A stretch of 40,508 bases of DNA from a virus (taxonomy: Duplodnaviria; Caudoviricetes): IMG/VR virus record IMGVR_UViG_3300048894_000019, positions 1 to 40,508 of that record; one strand, 5' to 3'. The number at the start of each line of letters is the position of its first letter. Position 1 is the stretch's first letter. Shown here in pieces: positions 3,018 through 34,889 of the stretch. The position numbers and the translations under genes were made by a program. Under the pieces are notes generated by a model that searched no databases, had not been told where the DNA came from, and saw only the letters and a list, made by a program, of their open reading frames with translations.

Positions 3018-3092
3018 TGGTAGCGGAAGTCCGATTTGAACGGACAACCTCCGGCTTATGAGACCGGCGATCTGCCATTGATCTATTCCGCT
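3018..3092 (-). tRNA. tRNA with CAT anticodon (Met/fMet-like; Ile2 not excluded)
   Basis: AGCGGAA/TTCCGCT acceptor stem plus ACCA, D arm GATC/GATC, anticodon arm CCGGT-CTCATAA-GCCGG, T arm GTCCG-TTCAAAT-CGGAC. Confidence 0.9.
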
Positions 3093-7943: not shown

Positions 7944-8180
7944 TTATGCAGCTTTTTCAGCAGCTTCCACGGATTGCATTGGCGCCGGGCCGAACACGTC
8001 CGGCCGCAGCTCATAGCGAGTGACCTTGCCGCCGGTTGCTTCTTCGATGGTGATGCAGTGCTGCGGCGGGATCTGTTTCCAGTTCCGCACCGCTTCGCGA
8101 GTTACGCCACAGATGGCAGCGACCGCCGCATAGGAACCGAATTCCTCGCGATCCTTGATTTCGTCGATTCCGATGTTCAT
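7944..8180 (-). CDS. cro: Cro-like repressor (YdaS family)
   Basis: FGSYAAVAAICGVTREAVRNW..IP...C..IEEATGGKVTRYELRPDVFG; divergent from cI. Confidence 0.85.
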   Translation of the reverse strand: MNIGIDEIKDREEFGSYAAVAAICGVTREAVRNWKQIPPQHCITIEEATGGKVTRYELRPDVFGPAPMQSVEAAEKAA

Positions 8181-8187
8181 GCGCGCA

Positions 8188-8251
8188 GTCAACCATGATT
8201 GACCGCGACTTGTCAACGATGGCTGACCCGATCCGGTCAACACTGGTTTAC
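8188..8251. promoter_or_regulatory. OR-like operator triplet
   Basis: 16-bp imperfect palindromes GTCAACCATGATTGAC (8188), GTCAACGATGGCTGAC (8212), GTCAACACTGGTTTAC (8236), exactly 24 bp apart; TTGACA on the minus strand at 8211-8216. Confidence 0.85.
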
Positions 8252-8914
8252 ATGGAGACCCTGGGCGAGCGGTTACGACTGGAGCGCGTTGGCGCCGGCC
8301 TCACGCAGCAGCAGCTCGCCGACGAAGCGGGAGTCACCAAACAGGCGGTCTCGCAGATCGAAAGCGGAGCAACGAAGAACCCGGAAGCGGCGACGCTAGA
8401 GCCGATCTGTCGGCGCCTAAATCTCAATATGCGCTGGCTGCAATCGAAGATCGGGCCGAAACATCCGGCGACAGCCGCGTCGTCCGACTCGTTCGACGAC
8501 GTCGCTGGTTACGCGCACGGCGCCGGGATGGGGGACGGCCAGGTCGCCGAGGACTTCGCCGAAACGCATCGATTGAAGTTCCGCGCCGAAAGCCTGCGCA
8601 GCAAGGGCCTCGACGCGAAGCGGCTGAAAGTCTATTACGGCCAAGGCGATTCGATGGAGCCAACGATCGAGCATGATGATGCGATCATGTTCGACACTGG
8701 CGACGCCATCCCGCGCGACGACAGCATCTTCGTGATCGAATCGATCGAGGATGGAACGATCGCGAAACGCCTGCGCAATTATGGCGGCCGCTGGTTCGTG
8801 GTGAGCGACAATAAGTCAGATCCCAAGTGGCGCGATCCGATCCCGCTTGACGACAAGCGCCGCGGGTTCCACATTGTCGGCCGCGTGCGCTGGATAGCGC
8901 GATGGAAGGACTGA
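8252..8914 (+). CDS. cI: CI-like repressor (XRE HTH plus S24 peptidase)
   Basis: LGERLR...GLTQQQLA...GVTKQAVSQIESG; GAG cleavage site; GDSMEPTI Ser and AKRL Lys; IVGRV. Confidence 0.93.
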   Translation: METLGERLRLERVGAGLTQQQLADEAGVTKQAVSQIESGATKNPEAATLEPICRRLNLNMRWLQSKIGPKHPATAASSDSFDDVAGYAHGAGMGDGQVAEDFAETHRLKFRAESLRSKGLDAKRLKVYYGQGDSMEPTIEHDDAIMFDTGDAIPRDDSIFVIESIEDGTIAKRLRNYGGRWFVVSDNKSDPKWRDPIPLDDKRRGFHIVGRVRWIARWKD

Positions 8915-8915
8915 A

Positions 8916-9461
8916 ATGCGAATCCTGAAGATCGTCACCCTGCTCTGCGCGATGCTATCAGGCAGCGCGATTGCCGCCGGCATGCAGCCAGCGCCCTCAA
9001 TGACGGTTGGTGGTTTCGTGATCGGGCAACCGCTGCCGCAAGACTGCGCAGCCAGCGACCAGGCGCCGTGCGTTCTACATGATGCGGCGGCCATTGGCGG
9101 AAAGACCAGGCTCAAATTTCAGGCAGAAACGCCAGGACTGAACGGACAGCATCTTCCGGAAGCGATTGTCGTCGATGGCAAGCTCGAAGGCGTTCGCATC
9201 TTCACGACAGGCATCGATTCGCAGCGAGCCTGGCTCAAGACGCTCAGCGACAAATATGGCAAGCCACTCGAGCTGGCAGACGTGCAGACGCGGAACCGAA
9301 TGGGCGCGACGTTCTCAGTGATTCGCGCGGGCTGGGTCTTTTCGGATCTCGTGGTCACGTTCGACGGCGCATCGAAGCAGATCGATCTCGGTGTCGTGAC
9401 AATCGAGACGCAGAAAGGAATGGCGGCCGAGGAAGCTACGCAGTCGCCAAGCTCGCTTTGA
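8916..9461 (+). CDS. secreted/periplasmic protein co-oriented with cI (lysogen-expressed moron)
   Basis: Sec signal MRILKIVTLLCAMLSGSAIA; starts 1 nt after the cI stop. Confidence 0.7.
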   Translation: MRILKIVTLLCAMLSGSAIAAGMQPAPSMTVGGFVIGQPLPQDCAASDQAPCVLHDAAAIGGKTRLKFQAETPGLNGQHLPEAIVVDGKLEGVRIFTTGIDSQRAWLKTLSDKYGKPLELADVQTRNRMGATFSVIRAGWVFSDLVVTFDGASKQIDLGVVTIETQKGMAAEEATQSPSSL

Positions 9462-9488: not shown

Positions 9489-9896
9489 CTAGAGCTTCAC
9501 ATCAAGCCATATTCCGAGGCTTCGCCCACGCCCGCCGCCGATAATCAACGCGTTGCATTCCTGATGGGCGGCTTGATGATGTTTTCGATAGCGGCGGGCA
9601 TCGGCGCGCGCTAGATATGCCACCGTGCGGCCGTTGACATCAACGCGAACCGCATGATCGTCATACGGATTGCTGTCCTCAAATACGAGGACCGCTGTGC
9701 ATCCATGCCGAACCTCACCCTTTCCTGCCGCCGCGCGAAGGGCTGGCTGGTAGTGCGATTCCCCTACTGCCCCGATCGAATAGCCGTCAAAATCTGATTC
9801 TTGGCTGGAACTTGCACGCCGATCCGGCACGTTGACGCGAATCCGCGCCACAAGCACTAGCGCGACGACGACCACCAGCAACCAAAACCATCCCAT
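9489..9896 (-). CDS. membrane-anchored HIRAN-domain protein
   Basis: N-terminal TM (WFWLLVVVVALVLVA); VGESHYQ...L.FEDSNPYDDHAVRV..NG..VAYL HIRAN motif. Confidence 0.75.
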   Translation of the reverse strand: MGWFWLLVVVVALVLVARIRVNVPDRRASSSQESDFDGYSIGAVGESHYQPALRAAAGKGEVRHGCTAVLVFEDSNPYDDHAVRVDVNGRTVAYLARADARRYRKHHQAAHQECNALIIGGGRGRSLGIWLDVKL

Positions 9897-9919
9897 TTCT
9901 GGAGTATCTACGCCATTAG

Positions 9920-9958
9920 GTAAAGCATGGTTGACATGCTGCGTCAATCATGGTTGAC
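9920..9958. promoter_or_regulatory. OL-like operator pair / early rightward promoter
   Basis: GTAAAGCATGGTTGAC (9920) and GTCAATCATGGTTGAC (9943, exact reverse complement of the 8188 operator); TTGACA at 9931. Confidence 0.85.
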
Positions 9959-9983: not shown

Positions 9984-10322
9984 ATGAACCAACGCGCCGC
10001 AATCACCCCTCTTCCGTTCAAGCCCAGCGCCGAGCTCGGCCTGCACGGCCCCGACCTGCTCGAGCAATTCGCCGAGCGGTACGCCAACAACGGTTTCGAG
10101 ATCGAGGCCGACGTCCTGCAGCGCTGCGCGAAGGAGTGGCGCGGCGAGCGTGACACCGGAGAAGTCCAGGCGCCGGCGGCCGCCGAGCGCGCGCCGGACG
10201 GCACGATCGTCTGCGAAATGATCGAGACCGATTTCCGTACTGGCCATATCCAGGTGCGCGCGATCGGCAAGTTCCGCGTCGGCGCGGGCCGCTACTGGCT
10301 GATGCCGCTGGTGCAATCATGA
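9984..10322 (+). CDS. hypothetical protein, first gene of the early operon
   Basis: GGGAG RBS upstream of MNQRAA; stop overlaps the next start. Confidence 0.7.
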   Translation: MNQRAAITPLPFKPSAELGLHGPDLLEQFAERYANNGFEIEADVLQRCAKEWRGERDTGEVQAPAAAERAPDGTIVCEMIETDFRTGHIQVRAIGKFRVGAGRYWLMPLVQS

Positions 10323-10714
10323 TCGCGCGCGCCAAGAAACCCGCGAAGCCAGCAGCAGCGACCGCGCCTTCCACCTTCACCGTCGGCGACCTCGCATGGT
10401 GCGTGCTTTGCGACGGCAAACCCGTCGATGCAGCCACCCACGAGAAGGCCGTTGCAGACCTGGGCGCCGACTGGCGCATGCCCACGCTCTACGAGCTCCA
10501 GTACGGCTCGCCGCTGGATCGCACGCGCTTCAATCCAGCCTTCGACGCCGCGAAGTACCCGATGTTGAAAGCCGGTTGGTATCGCTCAGGCGATCCGGCG
10601 GCTTGGTCTCCCGAGTCGTGCGCGTGGGGCGTCCATTTCGGCGGCGGCGTCGTCGGCGACTACCACCGCGGCTACGCCGGGTTCGCGTTGGCCGTGCGCC
10701 GCGCCAGTCAGTAA
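10319..10714 (+). CDS. DGR target protein 1 (DUF1566/CLec-like)
   Basis: DWRMPT..EL, NPAFD...P, C-terminal VR; paralog of target 3. Confidence 0.9.
   Translation: MIARAKKPAKPAAATAPSTFTVGDLAWCVLCDGKPVDAATHEKAVADLGADWRMPTLYELQYGSPLDRTRFNPAFDAAKYPMLKAGWYRSGDPAAWSPESCAWGVHFGGGVVGDYHRGYAGFALAVRRASQ
10596..10708 (+). repeat. DGR variable repeat VR1
   Basis: 113 bp matching the TR with 18 mismatches, all at TR adenines. Confidence 0.95.
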
Positions 10715-10747
10715 TTGGCCTTTCTGCGCTTCTTCGAGGTCGCTGCC

Positions 10748-10975
10748 ATGAAATGGAACGCGTTGTTCGCTGCTCATCCGCACTTGTCGCTGCTGTTCAT
10801 CGCCGTGATCATCGTCGTGCTGGTCGAGGCCGTGCTGTTCATCGCGCAATGCGTGCGCATGACCACGCACAGCGACTACCCGTTCGAACGGTGGGATGGC
10901 GAAGGCGGCCGCGTGCTGCCTGACGAAGGCGAACACCGCGGCTTCCCGTACACCGGCCAGGACGATGCGCCATGA
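10748..10975 (+). CDS. small membrane protein
   Basis: GAGGT RBS, MKWNALF..., one long TM segment. Confidence 0.65.
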   Translation: MKWNALFAAHPHLSLLFIAVIIVVLVEAVLFIAQCVRMTTHSDYPFERWDGEGGRVLPDEGEHRGFPYTGQDDAP

Positions 10976-11268
10976 GCCCGCGCGAGAAGGTCCTCGTGGG
11001 CGCGCCGCAATCCGCTGCGCTGGAAATGGTCGAGCTGGCTTTCCAGATCGCCAACAGCGCCGCGCGTTCGGATATCGAGTCGTACTGCCGCATGCGACAC
11101 GAAGCGGCAACGCCAGAGCCAGGATGGGGCAGCTACTGGTACGAGGTCGAAACCGCCGCGCCCGATGACAAACGCAACTACATCGATCCGGCCGTGCGCT
11201 TCCTGATGCTCAGCGGGCAGATCGAATTCAGTGCTGGGTGCGTGCGCTTCCTGGTGCCGCCAGCATGA
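10972..11268 (+). CDS. hypothetical protein
   Basis: ATGA coupling at both ends. Confidence 0.65.
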   Translation: MSPREKVLVGAPQSAALEMVELAFQIANSAARSDIESYCRMRHEAATPEPGWGSYWYEVETAAPDDKRNYIDPAVRFLMLSGQIEFSAGCVRFLVPPA

Positions 11269-11513
11269 GCACGGTCCTGCAGTTCCCACGCGCTAGACGC
11301 GCGCTGGCCGACTTGTCCCGTGCCGCCCTGGTGCGTCGCTGCAGGATCGGCGCGCGCATCGACGGCTGCAACGAGGCGCAGCGCTATGTCGTCGCGCATG
11401 CGGCCGGCATCCAGTTCGACCACGGCGCCAAGCCCGACGCGATCTACAACGCCGCGCGCGACCTTGCGAAGAAACTCGTGGCCATGCCGCACGACCAGGA
11501 GCCGCGCCCATGA
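11265..11513 (+). CDS. hypothetical protein
   Basis: Start at MSTVLQFP; ATGA coupling at both ends. Confidence 0.65.
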   Translation: MSTVLQFPRARRALADLSRAALVRRCRIGARIDGCNEAQRYVVAHAAGIQFDHGAKPDAIYNAARDLAKKLVAMPHDQEPRP

Positions 11514-12118
11514 CCTTGTCCGTGATCGTCGTCGCGGGCCTTGGCCGCTGCGGCACCACCATGGTGATGCACATGCTCAACGCGGGCGGAATGGACTGCA
11601 TCGGCAACCGCGCGGGATTCGAGGACGGCCGCACAATCGCGCCTATCGACCGCGACTGGTTCGCAAGCCTCGGCGGCAAGGCCGTCAAGGTGATCGATCC
11701 GCACCACAACACGATGGCCGGCGATGTCCCAAAGCGCGTGATCTGGCTCGACCGGGATCCGGTCGAACAAATGCGCTCGCACGTCAAGATTCAGGAACAA
11801 CTTCTCGGCCTCACGACCGACCGCCAGCAACGGCGCTCCATGCTCGGCAACCTATCGCGTGACCGACGCGCGGCGATGGCGGCCATTGGCAGCGCGCCCC
11901 TCCTGGTCCTGCGCTTCGAATCGCTGCTGGCGCGCGCGTGGCACAGCAGCGAGATCATCGCCACCTTCCTGCAGGACGCCGGTATCTCGGTCGACATCGA
12001 CGCGATGGCAGCCGTGGTCAAGCGCCGGGCGCCGGAGTGCGCTCCGGATCTGGCGATCGAGCTCGAGTATTCGCGCGTGGCCGATGCAGCCGAAGCGACC
12101 GTAGAAGCCCATCCATAA
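11510..12118 (+). CDS. sulfotransferase-family (P-loop) protein
   Basis: VVAGLGRCGTTMV 5'-PSB-like motif, IWLDRDP.E...S 3'-PB-like motif, LRFESLL. Confidence 0.7.
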   Translation: MTLSVIVVAGLGRCGTTMVMHMLNAGGMDCIGNRAGFEDGRTIAPIDRDWFASLGGKAVKVIDPHHNTMAGDVPKRVIWLDRDPVEQMRSHVKIQEQLLGLTTDRQQRRSMLGNLSRDRRAAMAAIGSAPLLVLRFESLLARAWHSSEIIATFLQDAGISVDIDAMAAVVKRRAPECAPDLAIELEYSRVADAAEATVEAHP

Positions 12119-12140
12119 CCGAATCACCCAGGGAATCCCC

Positions 12141-12656
12141 ATGGACATCGCGATCACCATTCACCTCGATCATTCGCCGCCGCAGGCCCCGACCGTTCTC
12201 GTCTTTCCAGGCGAGCAACAGGCATCCGCCAACGGAGCGCGCGATTCCCGCTTCGAACGGATCCTCGAGAACGGTGCGCACGTCGCCACGCTCGACCACA
12301 GCACCGGCCTGATGTGGTGCGTCACGTCGCTCGGCCGCGAGGATGCACCGGAGAAGCAGCAGGACCATACCGCGTGCGTCGCGCGCTGCAAGAACCTGCG
12401 CCTGCTGGGCTTTGATGACTGGCGTCTCGCAGAGCGCAGCGAGGCCGTGACGATCATCGACGACACGCGCCACGAGCCCGCGATCGACACCGCGTACTTC
12501 CCCGGAATCAAGCCGGCCTGGCACCGGCTCAACACCGCGGCGGCTTGGTCTCCCGAGTCGTTCGCGTGGTACGTCCATTTCGGCTACGGCTACGTCAGCT
12601 ACTACCACCGCGGCAGCTCCGGGTTCGCGTTGGCCGTGCGCCGCGCCAGTCAGTAA
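12141..12656 (+). CDS. DGR target protein 2 (DUF1566/CLec-like)
   Basis: DHSTGLMW, LLGFDDWRL, IID...PAIDTAYFP DUF1566 motifs; C-terminal VR. Confidence 0.92.
   Translation: MDIAITIHLDHSPPQAPTVLVFPGEQQASANGARDSRFERILENGAHVATLDHSTGLMWCVTSLGREDAPEKQQDHTACVARCKNLRLLGFDDWRLAERSEAVTIIDDTRHEPAIDTAYFPGIKPAWHRLNTAAAWSPESFAWYVHFGYGYVSYYHRGSSGFALAVRRASQ
12537..12650 (+). repeat. DGR variable repeat VR2
   Basis: 114 bp matching the TR with 14 mismatches, all at TR adenines. Confidence 0.95.
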
Positions 12657-12686
12657 TTGGCCTTTTTGTCCCACCAGGAGTGACCC

Positions 12687-13085
12687 ATGAAAGCAACACC
12701 AGCTGCGAAGAAAACCACGAAGCCGGCGCCCGCTTTGCCCGCGACCTTCACGGTCGGCGATCTCGAATGGTGCGTGCTTTGCGAAGGCAAGGAAGTCAAC
12801 GCCAGCACGCACGAGAAGGCCGTGGCCGCGCTCGGTGGCGACTGGCGCATGCCGACCCGGCAGGAACTCGAGTACGGCTCGCCGCTCGATCTGACGCGTT
12901 ACAACCCGGCGTTCGATGCCGAGAAGTACCCGATGCTGAAAGCGGGCTGGTACCGCTCGTGCACCGCGGCGGCTTGGTCTCCCGAGTCGTGCGCGTGGGG
13001 CGTCCTTTTCGACGTCGGCCTCGTCGGCTACGACCACCGCTCCTTCACCGGGTTCGCGTTGGCCGTGCGCCGCGCCAGTCAGTAA
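12687..13085 (+). CDS. DGR target protein 3 (DUF1566/CLec-like)
   Basis: AGGAG RBS; DWRMPT..EL; C-terminal VR; 59/72 aa identical to target 1 over the core. Confidence 0.92.
   Translation: MKATPAAKKTTKPAPALPATFTVGDLEWCVLCEGKEVNASTHEKAVAALGGDWRMPTRQELEYGSPLDLTRYNPAFDAEKYPMLKAGWYRSCTAAAWSPESCAWGVLFDVGLVGYDHRSFTGFALAVRRASQ
12966..13079 (+). repeat. DGR variable repeat VR3
   Basis: 114 bp matching the TR with 18 mismatches, all at TR adenines. Confidence 0.95.
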
Positions 13086-13107
13086 TTTGACCTTTGGCTG
13101 ATCTCAA

Positions 13108-13554
13108 ATGCCCTCACGCTTCCAGCTGCCGCCGATCATCAAAGCTGCCGAAAGGCTTCTCGTGGATATCGAGAACGCCGTCCGCAGGTTCCCGCGCTAC
13201 CACCGCTACCAGGTGGGCGCGGATCTGCGGCGGCGGGCGATGGACGCGTACCGCACCGCGTGGCGCGCCTGGCAGGACCGCAAGGCTCAGGCGCACTGGG
13301 TGGAGCAGCTGGTGTGGATCGTCGATGAGATCAAGCAGCACCTGCAGATTGGCAAGCAGCTGCACGCGTTCGTGAGTTTCGCCCAGTTCGAAATGCTCTT
13401 CCGCCAGGCGCAAGGGCTTGGCAAGCAGGCCGGCGGATGGCGCCGGGATCTGTCGCACCCCATTGTCCAGAATGCGGACGGCCGTCGTGCCGTTTCGCAG
13501 CGTGACGAGAAACTGAGTGCCCATGCCGCCTCGATGCTCGGGGCCAATCCATGA
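13108..13554 (+). CDS. avd: DGR accessory variability determinant (Avd, four-helix bundle)
   Basis: FPRYHRYQVGADLR...GKQAGGWRR motif; lies between a target gene and the TR. Confidence 0.88.
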   Translation: MPSRFQLPPIIKAAERLLVDIENAVRRFPRYHRYQVGADLRRRAMDAYRTAWRAWQDRKAQAHWVEQLVWIVDEIKQHLQIGKQLHAFVSFAQFEMLFRQAQGLGKQAGGWRRDLSHPIVQNADGRRAVSQRDEKLSAHAASMLGANP

Positions 13555-14846
13555 CGACGCCGCGCTACCCGCAAGGATGTCCGGCCCGGTCGCAAGTGCG
13601 TGGGAGAGCGGCGGCTTGGTCTCCCGAGTCGTACGCGTGGAACGTCAATTTCAACAACGGCAACGTCAACAACAACCACCGCAACAACACCGGGTTCGCG
13701 TTGGCCGTGCGCCGCGCCAGTGAGTTTCAGGGTGCCGAGGGTGTCTCCTTGCGATCGCTCCACGAAGCATGGCGCCGCGCGCGTCGCCAGAAGGTTCCGA
13801 GCCACAACCAGGCACGCTTCGACCGACGCTGGGGCGATGGCCTGCTACAGCTGCAGCGCGAGCTCCTGACGGGCACCTGGGCGCCGCGGCGCGCGACCTG
13901 TTTCATCGCGACCAGGCCGAAGGCGCGCGAGATCCATGCGCCGGACTTTGCCGATCGCGTCGTGCACCACTGGCTCGTGCCGCAGCTGGAGGCGATCTAC
14001 GAGCCGGGCTTCATCCACGACAGCTACGCCAACCGCGCCGGCAAGGGCAGCCATGCAGCGGTGCGGCGCCTGCAGGACTTCGTGCGCCAGGTCGCCAGCG
14101 GCCAGGGCAGCGGCTACTTCCTGCAGCTCGACATCCGCAACTTCTTCGTATCGATCCACCGGCCGACCTTGTGGGCGCTGCTCAGGCAGAGGATGCAAGC
14201 GCGCGGCGTGCCGGACGTCGTACAGCATGCCGTGCACGCGCTGCTGCGGCACGATCCGCTGCATGCCGGCGTCGACATGCGCGCGAGCAGCGACGAGGTC
14301 GCCATGGTGCCGGCGCACAAGCGCCTGGCGAACGCGGCGCCGGGCTGCGGCTTGCCGATCGGCAACCTCAGCAGCCAGTTCTTCGCAAACGTCTACCTCG
14401 ATGCCATCGACCAGTTCGTCAAGCACGTCCTGCGCGTGAAGCGGTACCTGCGCTATGTCGATGACTTCGTTCTGGTGCACCGCGACCGCGCCCAGCTCGC
14501 TGCCTGGCGCGATGCGATTGCCGACTTCCTCGCGACCAAGTTGCGCCTCAGCCTGAAAGCTGACGAACGCCTGCGGCCGCTGGGCGACGGCATCGACTTC
14601 CTCGGTTACATCGTGCGTCCGACGCATACCCTGGTCCGCCGGCGCGTGGTTGCGCATGCGCACGACGCCCTGGCGCGCTGGGAAGCCGTCCACGTTCGCG
14701 GCGCGCGGATCCACGCGACTGCAGATGCCAAGGCGCAGGTCCGGGCCCAACTCGCAAGCTACCAGGGCCATTTCACCCATGCGTCGACGCAAAGGCTTAG
14801 CGCGCGGATCCTCGAGCGCTTTCCATGGATCGAGGACGTCGCATGA
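13551..14846 (+). CDS. DGR reverse transcriptase
   Basis: PKAREIHAPDFADRVVHH, DSYANRAGKGSH, LQLDIRNFF, GLPIGNLSSQFFANVYL, RYVDDF, GIDFLGY; start may alternatively be TTG 13749. Confidence 0.95.
   Translation: MTTPRYPQGCPARSQVRGRAAAWSPESYAWNVNFNNGNVNNNHRNNTGFALAVRRASEFQGAEGVSLRSLHEAWRRARRQKVPSHNQARFDRRWGDGLLQLQRELLTGTWAPRRATCFIATRPKAREIHAPDFADRVVHHWLVPQLEAIYEPGFIHDSYANRAGKGSHAAVRRLQDFVRQVASGQGSGYFLQLDIRNFFVSIHRPTLWALLRQRMQARGVPDVVQHAVHALLRHDPLHAGVDMRASSDEVAMVPAHKRLANAAPGCGLPIGNLSSQFFANVYLDAIDQFVKHVLRVKRYLRYVDDFVLVHRDRAQLAAWRDAIADFLATKLRLSLKADERLRPLGDGIDFLGYIVRPTHTLVRRRVVAHAHDALARWEAVHVRGARIHATADAKAQVRAQLASYQGHFTHASTQRLSARILERFPWIEDVA
13608..13721 (+). ncRNA. DGR template repeat (TR)
   Basis: AAC-rich copy of the three VRs (10 AAY codons, 25 adenines), between avd and the RT core. 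Confidence 0.95.
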
Positions 14847-18729: not shown

Positions 18730-18965
18730 GAGAAGATCGCCGGGAAAGGGGAAGCGTTCAGATTCGCGAATCCCCTGAAAGCCGCACCAGATGGTGCCGT
18801 TGAGAGGAGTCGAACCTCCGACCTACTGATTACGAATCAGCGTGCAGCACGCGCGCAAGGCACCGCCAGCGCTACCGAATCAGCAAACTGACGGCTTCCC
18901 CTATTGCAGAATTATCCACCGCTAAAGCCCGCATGTTTGCGTGCGGTTCGGCGCGATAGGAGAAG
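18726..18965. repeat. putative integrase arm-binding sites (ATAGGRGAAG)
   Basis: ATAGGAGAAG 18726, AAAGGGGAAG 18745, inverted ATAGGGGAAG 18895-18904, ATAGGAGAAG 18956, flanking the att core. Confidence 0.65.
18792..18840 (-). other. attP core: 3' half of tRNA-Thr(CGT)
   Basis: CTGATTCGTAATCAG-TAGGTC-GGAGGTTCGACTCCTCT-CAACGGC-ACCA; the 5' tRNA half is absent. Confidence 0.88.
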
Positions 18966-30417: not shown

Positions 30418-30779
30418 CAGAAGCCCAGGCGATAGCGATAGGGCCAGAGCAGACCTTCCGCCGTCTTGCGGAGACCTTCACGCTCCGCGGTATCGGCCGC
30501 GTCGTACTTCGCCTGGACGAGGAAATAGACCGCCACGCGCACCGATGGCGCAACGTCGTCGCTGTCCGATGCCGCTTCCTGCGAATCCGAATCCGAGTCG
30601 AAGTCCGAATCCGACAGGAACTCCGGCGCCTCGGCATCCGTGCGCGGAAGATCCTCGCGATTCATGAACTGCGCGGCCTCGTTCTCGGCCGCATCGATCA
30701 GCGTCTGGATCAGCAGGTCGTCGCTGGTATGGGTCACGCGCAGATGACGCTTGACCTCGGCGAGCGTGATCACACTCAT
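30417..30779 (-). CDS. head-tail connector (gp6-like) with Ser-Asp insertion
   Basis: ITLAEVKRHLRV....DD.LIQ.LIDAA...LLWPYR. Confidence 0.88.
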   Translation of the reverse strand: MSVITLAEVKRHLRVTHTSDDLLIQTLIDAAENEAAQFMNREDLPRTDAEAPEFLSDSDFDSDSDSQEAASDSDDVAPSVRVAVYFLVQAKYDAADTAEREGLRKTAEGLLWPYRYRLGF

Positions 30780-31453
30780 GCGGCAGCCTCCAGCCAGATA
30801 TCGTCGTGCTCGCGCGGCGCCCATTCGGGCAACGCCGGGCAGCCCAGGGTGAAATGCGCGATTGCGAGGTTGTCCGGCTTCGGCTGCATGCCGACCAGCC
30901 AGTTGAAGCGGCCCGGGAGCTTCCCGATCTCGCTATCGGCCAGCCATCCGAACGCATGCAGGTCGCGCCCTGGCCATTGGTTCAGCGTGGTCAGGTTCAA
31001 GCGGCGATTCGCCGGGTGATCGCAATTCCAGAGCACCACGCTCGACCAGAGCTTGCGCGTATAGGACTGCTGCGGCTGGCCGTCCATCTTCGTGCCGGAG
31101 ACGAGCATCGACGCGTGCTGCACGACCAGGACGGCCTTGCTCGGATCGGCGAACTTCAGCAGTTCATGCGGATCCTGCAGGAACACCACGTCGGCATCGA
31201 CAAAGAGCGCCCAGCCGGAATGCTGCAGCAGCGGCACGAAGAACCGGCTGATCGCGAAGTCGGTCGACTGCGGCGCAGCGGAATTCAGGTCGTACAGCTG
31301 CCCGCGGCGATCGGTCGGACGGGTCAGCAGGCCAGCAGCGCGCAAGCGGTCCTCATACAGGCCGACCGGATCGCAGCCGAACTTCCGCGCGGTCTTGCAC
31401 GCGACGTCGAAGGCCGCCTGCTCGCGGTTGTCATAGCCGACCCATATCTTCAT
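30776..31453 (-). CDS. GT-A fold glycosyltransferase (DXD)
   Basis: IWVGYD.RE, STDF..SRF.VP, ALFVDADVVF, RKLWSSV, HFT.G.P. Confidence 0.8.
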   Translation of the reverse strand: MKIWVGYDNREQAAFDVACKTARKFGCDPVGLYEDRLRAAGLLTRPTDRRGQLYDLNSAAPQSTDFAISRFFVPLLQHSGWALFVDADVVFLQDPHELLKFADPSKAVLVVQHASMLVSGTKMDGQPQQSYTRKLWSSVVLWNCDHPANRRLNLTTLNQWPGRDLHAFGWLADSEIGKLPGRFNWLVGMQPKPDNLAIAHFTLGCPALPEWAPREHDDIWLEAAA

Positions 31454-31983
31454 TTCGTTGCCTCGAGGCGCATGTCGCGGTATGCGCGCTTCGCGTGGAA
31501 CTGCGGCTCGCGCACGCGGATCTTGTGGAAACCGGCACGCTTGAGCTCGCCGCGCAGCTCGTCGACCTGCCAGCCCCACTTGTGCAGCATCAGGACGTCC
31601 TTGTATCCGGGATCGCCGTAGATGCCCCAGATGCCGTGTCGCGGGTTGTCCGTGCGCAGGAAGTTCTGACAGCACTTGACCAGGTCCGGCAGCTCGAGCA
31701 CGAGCCGGCCGCCAGGCTTGAGCACGCGGCGCCATTCCTTCAGCGTATCCAGCGCCTCCCAGCGATAGACGTGCTCGAGGACGTGGATCGCCATGGCCTC
31801 GTCCGCGTAATCGTCCGGCAAGGGAATCGCACGGATGTCGCACTGCACGTCATGCGATGGATCGAGCCCTACCGATGTCCAGCCTTCGAACTTCTTGTCG
31901 CCGGCGCCGATGTTCAGGCGGACAGGCGCGTCTTTAGATACTTCCACGCGATCGCTGCCTCTGAAGGTCGGTATTGCCACCAT
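31450..31983 (-). CDS. SAM-dependent methyltransferase
   Basis: LNIGAG, HVLEH, EWRRVLKPGG.L....PD. Confidence 0.88.
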   Translation of the reverse strand: MVAIPTFRGSDRVEVSKDAPVRLNIGAGDKKFEGWTSVGLDPSHDVQCDIRAIPLPDDYADEAMAIHVLEHVYRWEALDTLKEWRRVLKPGGRLVLELPDLVKCCQNFLRTDNPRHGIWGIYGDPGYKDVLMLHKWGWQVDELRGELKRAGFHKIRVREPQFHAKRAYRDMRLEATK

Positions 31984-32726
31984 GCCGCGCTATGCAAAAA
32001 CCGCAGCCGTTCTTCCCTGCTCGGCCGCAGCGGGTCGGCGATGTTGCTGCCGTACAACGCCGCCGCAATGCCGTCCTCGCAGACGACCGGAATGCCCGCG
32101 ATGCAGGCATCGATCGCCGTGTTGCTATGCCGGCAGACCAGCAGCGAGGCACCGCGGATCACGTCCTCAATCGGTCCAGCCGCAGCCATCCGGCAACCCG
32201 GCACGAGCGCGTCCGTCGGCTTCTTCGGCCGATAGATGACCTCGCGCCCCGGATACGCCGCGCGGATTGCACGGAACGTGCGCAGCTCCCACGATTGCCC
32301 CGTCTCGCCGGCAACCTGGCGCGACTTCATGCCCATTCCCGTCAGCACGATCGGACCCTTGCGGTTCCAGTCGTTGCGCAGCTCGATCCTGGACGCTTCC
32401 CACCGGTGCGCCGGTTCCTCGCGGATCCATTGCTGCGGGTGATCAGCGTCGATCGTGACCCGCATCGCTGCATCGCCGTTCTTCTCGCGCTGCCAATAGC
32501 CCAGATCCCAGCCGACGACATGCCGGCCGGACTTCAGGTGCGCGAGCCAGTTCTGCCGACGCTCCGGATGCCCGATGCCGTAGGTCATCAGCACGTCGCG
32601 CGCGCCCTTGTAGAACTCGCGCGGCTGCGCCGAGACACCGCATGATGGCGCCGCCTTGACCATCGCTTCCAGAATGTCGCGGCCCCTGGAGGCCATGTCC
32701 CAATTCAGCAGGACTTCGAAGCGCAT
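31914..32726 (-). CDS. GT-B / KpsS-like glycosyltransferase
   Basis: DLGYW, VIYRPK, SNTAIDA.IAGIPV, W.QY...E. Confidence 0.6.
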   Translation of the reverse strand: MRFEVLLNWDMASRGRDILEAMVKAAPSCGVSAQPREFYKGARDVLMTYGIGHPERRQNWLAHLKSGRHVVGWDLGYWQREKNGDAAMRVTIDADHPQQWIREEPAHRWEASRIELRNDWNRKGPIVLTGMGMKSRQVAGETGQSWELRTFRAIRAAYPGREVIYRPKKPTDALVPGCRMAAAGPIEDVIRGASLLVCRHSNTAIDACIAGIPVVCEDGIAAALYGSNIADPLRPSREERLRFLHSAAWWQYRPSEAAIAWKYLKTRLSA

Positions 32727-33559
32727 TCGAGAAACGCCTTGTAATCCGATGCTGCTTCGGCCAATGGATAGGCCATCTTCCGCAGCCGTTTGTGAACCTC
32801 GATGCGGTTCGCCTGCGGTGTCAGCCAGTCCAGCGCCATCGCGAGCGATTTCGGCGAGTCGACGAAGTATTCAGCCCCGCACGCGACTTCCTGATAGCCC
32901 TTCTCCAGCTGGCCCACGAACGGGGTGCCGCTGCCGAAGCAGTTCTCCAGCTTCACCGCCGACTTCCAGTTTCGCGCGCAATAGCTCGCCCACTGCCCGT
33001 CCCGGAATGCGACCGCGATATCCAGCTGCGCCAGGCTTGCCGGGTTCACCACGAAGCGCCAGCCGCGCCGCTCGCATTCCTCGCTGAGCAGGCGATGCCA
33101 GCGGCCCAGGTACTGCGCCGCGCCTTCGTAACCGATCGTCCGCACGATCGGATTGACCGGGTTCGTCGCCAGTCCCGGCCGCGCGTGATGCCGCAGCGTC
33201 ATCGATGGCCCGTCAAAGCCCACGTCCGCGCCCATGCCACGGTTAGGCCATACGACCGCGCAGGGAGCGATCTGGGCGATCCGCTCGCGCATCCATGCAA
33301 TCGCCTGGGCCCGCGTCCATTCCTCGCACGCCGGCTGCGGGTAGCAGTCGACGACGTCGAAAACGACCGGGACGCCCGAGCGCTTGATCGCGTCGAGCGT
33401 TTCCGCGCGCGCCTTCTTCACCAGGACGATCAGATCGTGCGCCTTGCACTGCTCGACCGTTGCATGCGGCGCGATCGTCGCGCCCAATGCGTTGCCCAGC
33501 TGCTCGCCACGAACGATCCACGATCCAGCGGAGCCACCGCCGGCGAATAGCACCTTCAT
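32705..33559 (-). CDS. GT-B-like glycosyltransferase
   Basis: GSW.VRGEQL, VFDVVD, IGYEG, LDIAVAFR, KSAVKLEN..G.GTP. Confidence 0.6.
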   Translation of the reverse strand: MKVLFAGGGSAGSWIVRGEQLGNALGATIAPHATVEQCKAHDLIVLVKKARAETLDAIKRSGVPVVFDVVDCYPQPACEEWTRAQAIAWMRERIAQIAPCAVVWPNRGMGADVGFDGPSMTLRHHARPGLATNPVNPIVRTIGYEGAAQYLGRWHRLLSEECERRGWRFVVNPASLAQLDIAVAFRDGQWASYCARNWKSAVKLENCFGSGTPFVGQLEKGYQEVACGAEYFVDSPKSLAMALDWLTPQANRIEVHKRLRKMAYPLAEAASDYKAFLECASKSC

Positions 33560-34281
33560 GCAAGCAGCCTCGTGAATGCCTCGCCGGACTTGATCTCGCC
33601 AAGGCGCCATTGCGCCCATGCCAGCCGGCGAAACATCGCCAGCCGGCCTTCCTCGGTGTTGTCCTGCTCGCCGACCCAGCCTGGCATCCACGACCGCACC
33701 GGGATGCCCCAGAGCAGCGCCTTGATCGCCGCGCCACTGCCCCACGTCCAGACGCAGCGCGCACGCGCCAGATCGTCTTCCAGCGGCACGCAGCGGTTCA
33801 CGCCGGGATGCGGGCGAACACGGCCGCCTGATTCCTTGCGCGCCCAATCCGGCCAGCCCAGCGGCATCGCAACGCCCGGCGGACCGATACCGCGCTGCGG
33901 CAGGATGACGACCTCATCGCCACCGGCGCGGAACGCCGGGAGATCGACGCCAAGCGCATCCCATCGCGTGGAATCGCCGACCGGAAACCCGCCAGCGGTG
34001 TTGTGGTAATTGCGGGCGATCGAATACCACCGCTCGCCCTGAAACTCGTTCCCCCACGCCGCGTTTTCAGCGATCAGCACCGGCAGGCCGTGAAACTCGA
34101 AAGCATCGGCCGCGCGTGCGTTCTCGCGGTAGCGGTTCCAGATCACCAGCACATCGGTCTTATCCGGCCGCGTGGTGACCTCCGGAAAGACGCAATATCC
34201 GAGCCTTTCCAGTCCCTGCGTGAAGGCGTCGCTGCGGTAATGCACGCCGGGACGGATCCCGAGGAACGCCCTCACAAGCAT
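33556..34281 (-). CDS. GT-B / KpsS-like glycosyltransferase (paralog-like to 31914-32726)
   Basis: VRPHP, TWGSGAAIKALLWGIPV, LAWAQW...EI.SG; start ATG 34281 or GTG 34275. Confidence 0.6.
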   Translation of the reverse strand: MLVRAFLGIRPGVHYRSDAFTQGLERLGYCVFPEVTTRPDKTDVLVIWNRYRENARAADAFEFHGLPVLIAENAAWGNEFQGERWYSIARNYHNTAGGFPVGDSTRWDALGVDLPAFRAGGDEVVILPQRGIGPPGVAMPLGWPDWARKESGGRVRPHPGVNRCVPLEDDLARARCVWTWGSGAAIKALLWGIPVRSWMPGWVGEQDNTEEGRLAMFRRLAWAQWRLGEIKSGEAFTRLLA

Positions 34282-34889
34282 TCCTCGAGCGGCACACATG
34301 GAAAGCAGCGCAGCGCGGTCTCGCGTGTGGCGTTGATGATCTCCACGCCGCGCACTGCCATCGCCATCGCCCTGAATGCATCGATCCAGCGCGGCATGCG
34401 GTCGACGACTGGATTACCGATGCCGGCATGGTTGCCGTGCCAGTGCAGCTTCCCGCCCGTCGCCTGCATGTCGTAGCCCAGCAGGATCACGCGCGCGGCG
34501 CCGAACAGGATCGCCAGCTGCACCGCCTGAAACCCGCTGTTGCCACCTTGCCGGATCACGCCTTCATGCACCGGCATGCCGCCGCCCGGTTCCGAGCGAA
34601 TGAAGTTCAGCCCGTACTGCACGCAAGCGCGCTGGCTCGTCGTCCAGAGCTCGTATTCACCGCGCAGCGTGTCCGCATAAGCCTTCCACCAGGTGAAGTC
34701 CATCGCATAGAGCGCATCCGCGAATGGCGCGCGCTGAATGCTGGTGTTGACGGCTATGACTTTGCGCGGCGCGTCGTTGTCCGTTTCGGCTGCGCGCCAT
34801 CGGCCGACGGCTTCGCAATCGGCTGCCGTGAGACTCGGGCCGCTGGCGATGCAGACGACGTCCGCGCCTTGCCAGCGGCCGCCGTAGGG
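34272..34889 (-). CDS. GT29/Maf-like (ASGPSL) glycosyltransferase-like domain lacking its own start codon
   Basis: Frame upstream of the track ATG (34703) encodes PYGGRWQGADVVCIASGPSLT...VIAVN...DALYAMD; downstream GNSGFQA, ILLGYDM, IINAT..TAL. Confidence 0.7.
   Translation of the reverse strand, partial: PYGGRWQGADVVCIASGPSLTAADCEAVGRWRAAETDNDAPRKVIAVNTSIQRAPFADALYAMDFTWWKAYADTLRGEYELWTTSQRACVQYGLNFIRSEPGGGMPVHEGVIRQGGNSGFQAVQLAILFGAARVILLGYDMQATGGKLHWHGNHAGIGNPVVDRMPRWIDAFRAMAMAVRGVEIINATRETALRCFPCVPLEECL

Follow-up and report, generated by a model that had tools for sequence, protein, structure and literature searches.

A three-target diversity-generating retroelement of small lectin-fold proteins in the putative early operon of a lambdoid soil phage, and its recurrence among temperate phages

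The genome of a temperate lambdoid siphophage from soil carries a complete diversity-generating retroelement (DGR), with template repeat/variable repeat (TR/VR) pairs, avd, a reverse transcriptase (RT) and CLec targets. The reading of this cassette as early and CI-controlled, and not as part of a tail fibre, is well supported by its sequence context. Judged on the same grounds, its target proteins are very probably early, non-virion products. We tentatively propose that the DGR varies small, soluble binders of the lectin fold, which would work inside the cell early in infection or induction, most likely on variable host proteins (e.g., anti-phage defence components). That their partner is specifically a host protein, or their role counter-defence, is put forward just as tentatively, as is the preliminary suggestion of anti-defence or host-takeover factors.

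The window (the whole stretch of DNA analysed, 40,508 nucleotides; IMG/VR record IMGVR_UViG_3300048894_000019) is the whole phage genome, and every virion gene identified in it by Pfam and PHROG matches lies on the - strand. The features that bear on the cassette are as follows.

7944..8180, - strand: cro-like gene (gene call; cluster representative matches the phrog_35 repressor)
8188-8203, 8212-8227 and 8236-8251: OR, three 16-bp palindromic operator-like sites between cro and cI
8252..8914, + strand: CI-like repressor with HTH and S24 (probable start 8252; ORF open from 8195)
9920-9935 and 9943-9958: OL, two copies of the OR operator, within 9920..9958
10319..10714, + strand: target 1, CLec/Lcl_C, 131 aa, second gene after OL
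10596..10708, + strand: VR1, 18 adenine-specific differences over 113 nt, against TR 13609-13721
12141..12656, + strand: target 2, 171 aa, a low-confidence N-terminal extension and then an Lcl_C domain
12537..12650, + strand: VR2, 14 differences, each at a TR adenine
12687..13085, + strand: target 3, 132 aa, paralogue of target 1 (75% aa identity)
12966..13079, + strand: VR3, 18 differences, each at a TR adenine
13108..13554, + strand: avd (phrog_3206, E 1.6e-14)
13551..14846, + strand: DGR reverse transcriptase (PF00078; phrog_1423, E 1e-94)
13608..13721, + strand: TR, 114 nt, 25 adenines, 10 AAY codons
17570..18729, + strand: xis and tyrosine integrase, at the end of the co-directional run that holds the cassette

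A search of the full window, both strands included, with the 114-nt TR agreed with a preliminary description, made from the letters alone, of one TR and three VRs with 18, 14 and 18 mismatches; no TR-like repeat besides these four was found. As TR holds only 25 adenines in its 114 nt, the fall of 50/50 differences at adenines is far beyond chance (taking VR1 one base longer at its 5' end adds one non-A mismatch). The VR ends fall in the last codons of each target ORF, and the ten AAY codons allow 15^10 = 5.8e11 variants per target, the figure given before. PHROG and Pfam matches likewise bear out avd and an intact RT (the SQ and YVDD motifs of that description) downstream of the targets. Specifically, avd scores under the Pfam bAvd and NCBIfam cut-offs, the RT ORF is open with motifs GNLSSQ and YVDD intact, and the RT ATG overlaps the avd stop codon (ATGA). 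TR itself sits in frame within the RT ORF, a point absent from the preliminary description. No GC-rich hairpin of the BPP-1 type after the VRs beats shuffled sequences (z 1.16, 0.21 and -0.59), and such a hairpin is probably not required in this class, because Table S1 of Wu et al., in the available part of that source, also says “no” for two relatives (PMC5758913). The TR region matched no Rfam family. A retron, a group II intron or a DRT was rejected on the presence of TR/VR pairs plus avd, and an assembly artefact because the three VRs differ from one another, all lie in intact ORFs, and the layout recurs elsewhere.

The surroundings of the cassette have the features of a lambdoid pL operon: the OR operator recurs upstream, xis/int point the same way, and cro/cII diverge from cI. 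The OL sites at 9920 and 9943 copy OR, upholding the claim that the targets lie downstream of OL-like operators on the strand opposite the virion genes. A pL promoter presumably lies at OL, with TTGACA at 9931-9936 inside it; a scan for consensus sigma-70 promoters called none there.

None of the three window targets passes the thresholds of a hydrophobic-segment scan, which the control ORFs 8916 and 10748 do; with a single Lcl_C/CLec domain in each, this fits the earlier account of 131-171 aa proteins lacking signal peptide and TM segment. Matches to Lcl_C (PF07603), a domain that overlaps the VRs, reach 32.1, 70.3 and 39.0 bits for targets 1, 2 and 3, of which the first falls below the 34.9-bit cut-off. 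Structure prediction, suggested beforehand as a check, gave confident single-domain models (pLDDT 89.8 and 93.5) matching CLec folds, with 8q4e as best structural match. The closest solved folds are extracellular adhesin domains—the Lcl C-terminal domain (Z 11.8, rmsd 2.1, 97 aligned) and Bd2740 (Z 11.2, rmsd 2.2, 93 aligned)—and Mtd matches at Z 7.8 (rmsd 3.0, 110 aligned). The targets resemble no PADLOC model and no named NCBIfam family; a homologue search with target 3 returned itself and one 60% relative, and target 2 had no tblastn match among cultured phages. An Lcl_C profile search returned 68,303 matches, dominated by long multi-copy Lcl_C proteins. Across relatives (201 proteins, 98 loci), targets span 113-264 aa (95th percentile 198), and 4/201 carry a hydrophobic flag, including one cellular target whose N-terminus resembles a signal peptide; targets of more distant cellular RTs often have such N-termini, as judged by eye. 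Roughly a quarter to a third of targets bear an N-terminal extension, with alternating hydrophobic residues in 37/54 long representatives, and a profile of this extension matches targets only.

The search for homologous cassettes that had been proposed found the same layout in many phages, near cI and xis/int, among 100 loci that are not independent and amount to 55 RT groups. Either a co-directional cI or an opposite-strand cro/cII was present in 77/87 loci with at least 6 kb upstream (neither in the other 10/87), and xis/int lay downstream in 61/74 loci with at least 3 kb downstream. We then sought between cI and RT an operator pair derived from each locus's own OR, with another phage's OR as control. 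A pair was found upstream in 48/63 loci with cI (window and Magia included) vs 40/630 controls, the remaining 15/63 giving none; it lay upstream of 102/103 targets, and the distal target was the first gene after it in 12/24 cases, where 2.6 were expected. RT trees (FastTree and a 39-row IQ-TREE) place the layout in two separate RT lineages, the second including the cultured phages Magia and Haboob. Early placement under CI, and a role other than that of a tail fibre, are well supported as first read by context, i.e., by operators, gene order and relatives. Our literature search among openly readable papers found no paper stating an early-operon DGR placement and no expression or virion proteomics results for these phages; the phPA-G paper mentions no DGR, Avd, reverse transcriptase, mass spectrometry or proteomics.

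These relatives also bear on whether the targets are virion parts after all, either receptor-binding tips that can detach or decorations, which would be synthesised early and then join the particle to serve ordinary tropism switching. Adhesin tip domains are the closest folds, the N-terminal extension might attach to a fibre, the authors of the Magia paper propose host-range change (PMC7883833), and Roux et al., in the available part of that source, leave uncharacterised structural proteins open (PMC8144416). Yet, when 43 whole virus records were searched, 42 gave 93 full Lcl_C matches, each of them (93/93) on the strand of the RT and no more than 7 kb upstream of it, and 0/93 outside the early region. 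The window's own tail-end genes carry no VR, as the preliminary description had said of the tail genes and the both-strand scan agrees. Moreover, the cassette occurs with P22-type (portal, 3/43) and HK97-type (7/43) virions and in the myophage Magia alike (no tail-sheath match was found in the 43 records), and virion-type DGRs (BPP-1, phiARM81mr and two Vibrio phages) sit in virion modules with targets of 381-578 aa. We consider such a virion role very unlikely. Among large co-directional ORFs, 0/71 match virion Pfam families and 19 match DNA-metabolism, regulatory or DUF families. Two co-occurring clusters do have “head and packaging” as best PHROG category: a partial terminase-large match on the RT strand in 7 loci and a terminase-small-like gene on the opposite strand in 5.

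Residue usage at the AAY positions is biased. Across 156 unique VRs, Tyr, Gly and Ser are enriched ~1.6-fold, and Cys occurs 6 times vs 146 expected. One informative orthologue pair (L031/L054) differs at 13/23 TR-adenine sites, 0/87 other VR sites and 8/316 sites in the remainder of the gene; 11/12 independent orthologue pairs are identical in the VR, several looking like one genome in two collections. The sequencing comparison drew on five DNA runs as assembled contigs only, data in which VR polymorphism is not visible: long contigs held the cassette with few or no differing letters, X2 contigs left the VR2 core uncovered, and an X5 contig with 3 differing letters in 12500-12576 gives a weak hint only. 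A 102-nt X5 piece with 10 differences from VR3 was rejected as a new allele, the same 10 separating the window's VR1 from VR3.

The products might instead be free lectins, set loose at lysis, that serve as receptor decoys or attach to matrix or to neighbouring cells; alternatively, the cassette may be an almost neutral passenger in an early region prone to exchange. In keeping with this, Lcl_C occurs mainly in large proteins, many of them multi-copy, and the early region is a mosaic. However, because extra copies head the operon, cassettes are intact in 55 RT groups and VR amino-acid use is biased, selection on the cassette seems probable, and a product released at lysis ought to be under late control. 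Both variants appear quite improbable.

In the BPP-1 model, RT-Avd copies TR RNA with errors at adenines, and the cDNA replaces each VR. Were this to hold here, targets, Avd and RT would be made together in the early lytic phase, because loss of CI binding would fire pL; new VR alleles would be packaged and then tried in the next host, where the Tyr/Gly/Ser-rich variable face may bind a protein. The favoured partner, as above, is a variable host protein, but the same early, soluble anatomy would also fit if the binders aimed at other mobile elements, i.e., prophage repressors, exclusion or defence proteins, or proteins of co-infecting phages, in an antirepressor- or Nun-like manner. The position directly after OL would suit a product that is required without delay, operators differ between phages of the set, so that repressor specificities vary and offer a variable target, and one such operon holds a KilAC antirepressor. 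On the other hand, the targets have no sequence or fold link to known antirepressors, and CI repression, by silencing the genes in a lysogen, argues against standing exclusion; we regard this alternative as unlikely. We think it unlikely, too, that the role of the binders is to adjust host physiology, or the choice between lysis and lysogeny, from one host species to another by way of proteases, RNA polymerase factors or envelope assembly motors, as a post-entry host-range adaptation and not as counter-defence. The neighbouring cIII/N/recombination-type early genes and the many host genera in the RT lineage would accord with that idea, yet conserved host machines do not obviously need continuous hypervariation or the two to four target paralogues found per phage.

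Phage DGRs have been read almost wholly through BPP-1 tropism switching, and surveys keep one large cluster as “non-structural/unknown.” With members of that cluster apparently under an immunity repressor, often first in the early operon, the question narrows to the intracellular partner and becomes testable in cultured phages and in prophages of laboratory-tractable Xanthomonadales. Perhaps—we put this quite tentatively—temperate phages of Proteobacteria acquired, on at least two occasions, a cellular DGR of the adhesin type, shed the signal peptide of its targets and brought these under control of the immunity repressor, in many cases at the head of the early genes; they would then possess antibody-like, continuously re-randomised binders that work inside the cell, aimed at defence proteins of the host or at rival prophages. 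Should the partners prove to be defence proteins, the system would be a case of counter-defence by programmed hypermutation, and would offer a natural binder scaffold of 130 aa that comes with its own diversifier.

Much of the anatomy is already in print: short CLec2/DUF1566 targets, multi-target cassettes, members of the RT family, the cultured-phage layout and the idea of non-structural phage targets. In the part of the source available, Wu et al. (2018) describe CLec2/category d DGRs with short, DUF1566-only, multiple and non-adjacent targets, and the window shares its target class with their Stenotrophomonas sp. SKA14 and Rhodanobacter thiooxydans LCS2 (PMC5758913). The R. thiooxydans contig is our locus L088, whose RT is 62% identical to the window's and which lies between cII/cro/cI and integrase; the phage-homologue column of the Wu table, as available, is empty for both rows (PMC5758913). 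Clade 3/target cluster PC_00009 of Roux et al. (2021) is Proteobacterial, often prophage-borne, with Legionella-type targets listed as “non-structural/unknown” (PMC8144416, as available). Its likeness to the window is by description, and the available text gives it neither operon context nor function. The second DGR target of Quimbyvirus, far from the structural module and on the opposite strand, has a proposed role in phage-host conflict (Benler et al., 2021, PMC8008677, as available); Quimbyvirus, however, infects Bacteroidetes, its RT is frameshifted and it has one structural target as well, whereas all the window's targets lie in the early run.

The BPP-1 DGR (mtd-avd-TR-brt) shares TR/VR adenine specificity, Avd, RT and the CLec fold with the window. 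It differs in its one 381-aa virion target beside tail genes, its TR separate from brt, and an RT 30% identical to the window's; the window targets, unlike Mtd, have no virion-module placement and no fibre or anchor domains. The closest resemblance in layout is to cultured phages, namely Magia (MT701587; a Burkholderia phage), Haboob, phPA-G, LPPA56, Cruim01, vB_Sb_QDWS and vB_E192a, which have small Lcl_C-like targets, two to three A-specific VRs per phage, and avd and RT among early or recombination genes, as in the window. cI lies upstream in Magia, Haboob and phPA-G, and integrase downstream in Magia, QDWS, E192a and LPPA56. The RTs of this Magia group are 37-41% identical to the window's and form a separate clade (AU p 0.0026). 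For Magia itself, the published description lists two targets and suggests host-range change, with early placement not discussed (PMC7883833); in that phage, gene 57 is the first after the operator pair.

The window carries a real and well-formed DGR of a class already known. The preliminary description had reported one TR (13608-13721) serving three VRs, and a scan of both window strands returned those three and no more; they differ from it at 18, 14, and 18 positions, every one a TR adenine (the alignment of VR1 to the TR spans 113 nt, not 114). Each VR terminates within the last codons of its ORF (131-171 aa), and avd followed by an open RT with SQ and YVDD motifs lies downstream of the targets, as had been stated. 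The TR is in frame within the RT ORF, and the start codon (ATG) of this ORF overlaps the avd stop (window 13551-13721). This overlap and an open frame through the TR recur in 88 of 99 loci (45 RT groups), and in two loci (L063, L069) the TR is in a different frame from the RT and the ORF is open nevertheless; the RT product may carry an N-terminal extension encoded by the TR. In phage Cruim01, the avd-RT interval (L167:5687-5879) bears an annotated RT-15 RNA motif; at the equivalent window position there was no Rfam match.

Gene calls and Pfam/PHROG-type profile matches give this 40.5-kb virus record a complete, lambdoid gene layout:

Minus strand: terminase, HK97-type portal, protease, capsid, lambda-like tail, lysis, replication, cII, and cro
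Plus strand: cI and a single gene run from 9984 to xis/int (ending 18729)
31450-31947, minus strand: methyltransferase, within a six-gene block
31914-32726, minus strand: weak surface-carbohydrate match, same block
32705-33559, minus strand: glycosyltransferase-like fold, same block
34272-34703, minus strand: sialyltransferase-like (PHROG match), same block

The six-gene block (30776-34703, minus strand) separates the major capsid from the head-tail adaptor and is possibly a virion glycosylation cassette. A signal-peptide-like gene (8916-9461, plus) directly behind cI is faced by a weak HIRAN-like ORF (9489-9947, minus), an arrangement between cI and OL typical of a moron or exclusion slot; in two other DGR-bearing prophages the moron slot behind cI holds a HipA_2 kinase (L007:4576-6167, which also has DUF3037, and L093:4756-5505). 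The interval from target 1 to target 2 holds a P-loop gene resembling sulfotransferases (11510-12118, plus; PF13469, E 9e-6). We also observed a tRNA-Met near the lysis genes (3018-3092, minus) and, next to the integrase, a weakly scoring tRNA-like stretch (18795-18870, minus; E 0.75) that may be an attachment site or core. Among the matches listed for the RT, Luteimonas notoginsengisoli ranked first of the named genomes (73%) and the next were mostly other Xanthomonadales, from which we infer a Xanthomonadales-type host.

About 640 IMG/VR stretches match the RT peptides, and 77 of the best 80 of these contain one to four A-specific VRs each (the remaining three have a divergent target or an RT close to the contig end). 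From 80 genome loci we took L081-L099 and L106 plus three cellular comparators; gene calling, by a model that had been trained on the window, covered 106 sequences. Layout was counted over 100 loci in 55 RT groups, once the cellular loci (three), the annotated phages (two), and a single locus lacking an RT call had been set aside. Where upstream DNA sufficed, cI or cro/cII was seen in 77 of 87 loci (39/46 RT groups), and xis/int lay downstream in 61 of 74 (41/48 RT groups). In the window, a 16-bp palindrome occurs in three copies between cro and cI and in two at 9920-9958, and target 1 comes second among the genes behind the latter pair. When each phage's own OR served as query and the ORs of other phages as control, an operator pair appeared in the cI-RT interval of 48/63 loci with own versus 40/630 with foreign ORs. 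Behind such a pair lay 102 of 103 targets, and distal targets directly followed one as first gene in 12 of 24 cases (2.6 expected by slot), although these loci are related rather than independent events and the first-gene state occurs in 11/26 RT groups. Early, CI-controlled expression of soluble target proteins seems very probable from this genomic context; the earlier proposal to that effect stands as regards context, namely operators, gene order, and the comparison with relatives.

Further comparisons bear on the alternative that the targets are virion tips, which we regard as improbable. All 93 full Lcl_C matches in 42 of 43 whole virus records lie on the RT strand, ≤7 kb upstream of the RT. 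Among 71 large co-directional ORFs no virion Pfam family was found (52 had no match at all), and the best matches of 106 cluster representatives included no tail or connector family, though in two cases they were terminase-like. The cassette is also carried by a myophage, and portals in cassette-bearing records are P22-type (3/43) or HK97-type (7/43), most records matching neither model.

The target cluster comprises 201 proteins from 98 loci (median 146 aa), in every case on the RT strand, with four flagged hydrophobic. Long and short targets co-occur in 59 of 85 multi-target loci. The long class (~180 aa; L001-L099 and window 12141-12230) has an N-terminal extension of alternating hydrophobic residues, present in 37/54 long representatives versus 12/83 short ones and 179/818 other ORFs. 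AlphaFold models (pLDDT 89.8 and 93.5) each show one CLec domain, and the first ~30 residues of target 2 are modelled at low confidence without regular structure. Targets 1 and 3 have basic N-terminal tails rich in Lys/Ala/Pro (window 10319-10370 and 12687-12745), and their pI values are 8.8 and 7.7 (family median 5.2).

Of 12 independent orthologue pairs among relatives, 11 are identical in the VR and one differs, at 13/23 adenine sites and 0/87 other VR sites. At variable codons, Tyr, Gly, and Ser are overrepresented and Cys is underrepresented in a rough test whose expectation derives from observed base frequencies. That the targets are a released lectin, or the cassette a passenger, is improbable. 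DGR chemistry is established and would supply the mutagenesis. Soluble targets made at once, as several paralogues and constantly re-randomized, would meet a variable intracellular partner, and from these properties such a partner appears most likely. We tentatively rank first, ahead of all rivals, that the targets bind host proteins, chiefly defence components. Binders acting on rival prophage or phage proteins are a less likely reading, and action on conserved host machinery is less likely again.

A second RT lineage comes from seven cultured phages of Pseudomonas, Burkholderia, and Shewanella, which have 2-3 A-specific VRs in small genes among early/recombination genes; when 11 target proteins, drawn from five of these phages, were tested, 10 gave a weak Lcl_C match. 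In the tree, the RTs of these phages fall into their own clade, distinct from the 56-row clade containing the window RT, and an AU test run after the tree was seen rejects a single clade (p 0.0026; 39 rows, LG+G4). Cellular RTs, whose targets often have signal-peptide-like starts, fall between both phage clades. This topology would follow from either two recruitments or replacement of an RT.

In the literature searched, we found no statement on early-operon placement of such targets, and the portions available of PMC3575424, PMC10053308, and bioRxiv 2024.11.15.621889 held nothing decisive. Sections of Wu et al. 2018 (PMC5758913) describe short DUF1566-only CLec2 targets, put multi-target DGRs at ~15%, and include two Xanthomonadales elements there without phage assignment, one being our Rhodanobacter thiooxydans LCS2 contig (L088); the SKA14 element is also shown in MyDGR. 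PC_00009 is placed in a non-structural/unknown class in the relevant part of Roux et al. 2021 (PMC8144416), the Magia announcement (PMC7883833) notes a DGR and suggests host range, and an excerpt of Benler et al. 2021 (PMC8008677) proposes that a non-structural target of Quimbyvirus functions in conflict. The early-operon context of this known DGR class is common, yet seems undescribed. In structure comparisons of the target models, the closest solved fold is the Legionella Lcl C-terminal domain (Z 11.8, rmsd 2.1, 97 aligned), followed by Bdellovibrio Bd2740 (Z 11.2, rmsd 2.2, 93 aligned), whereas Mtd matches a window target model at Z 7.8.
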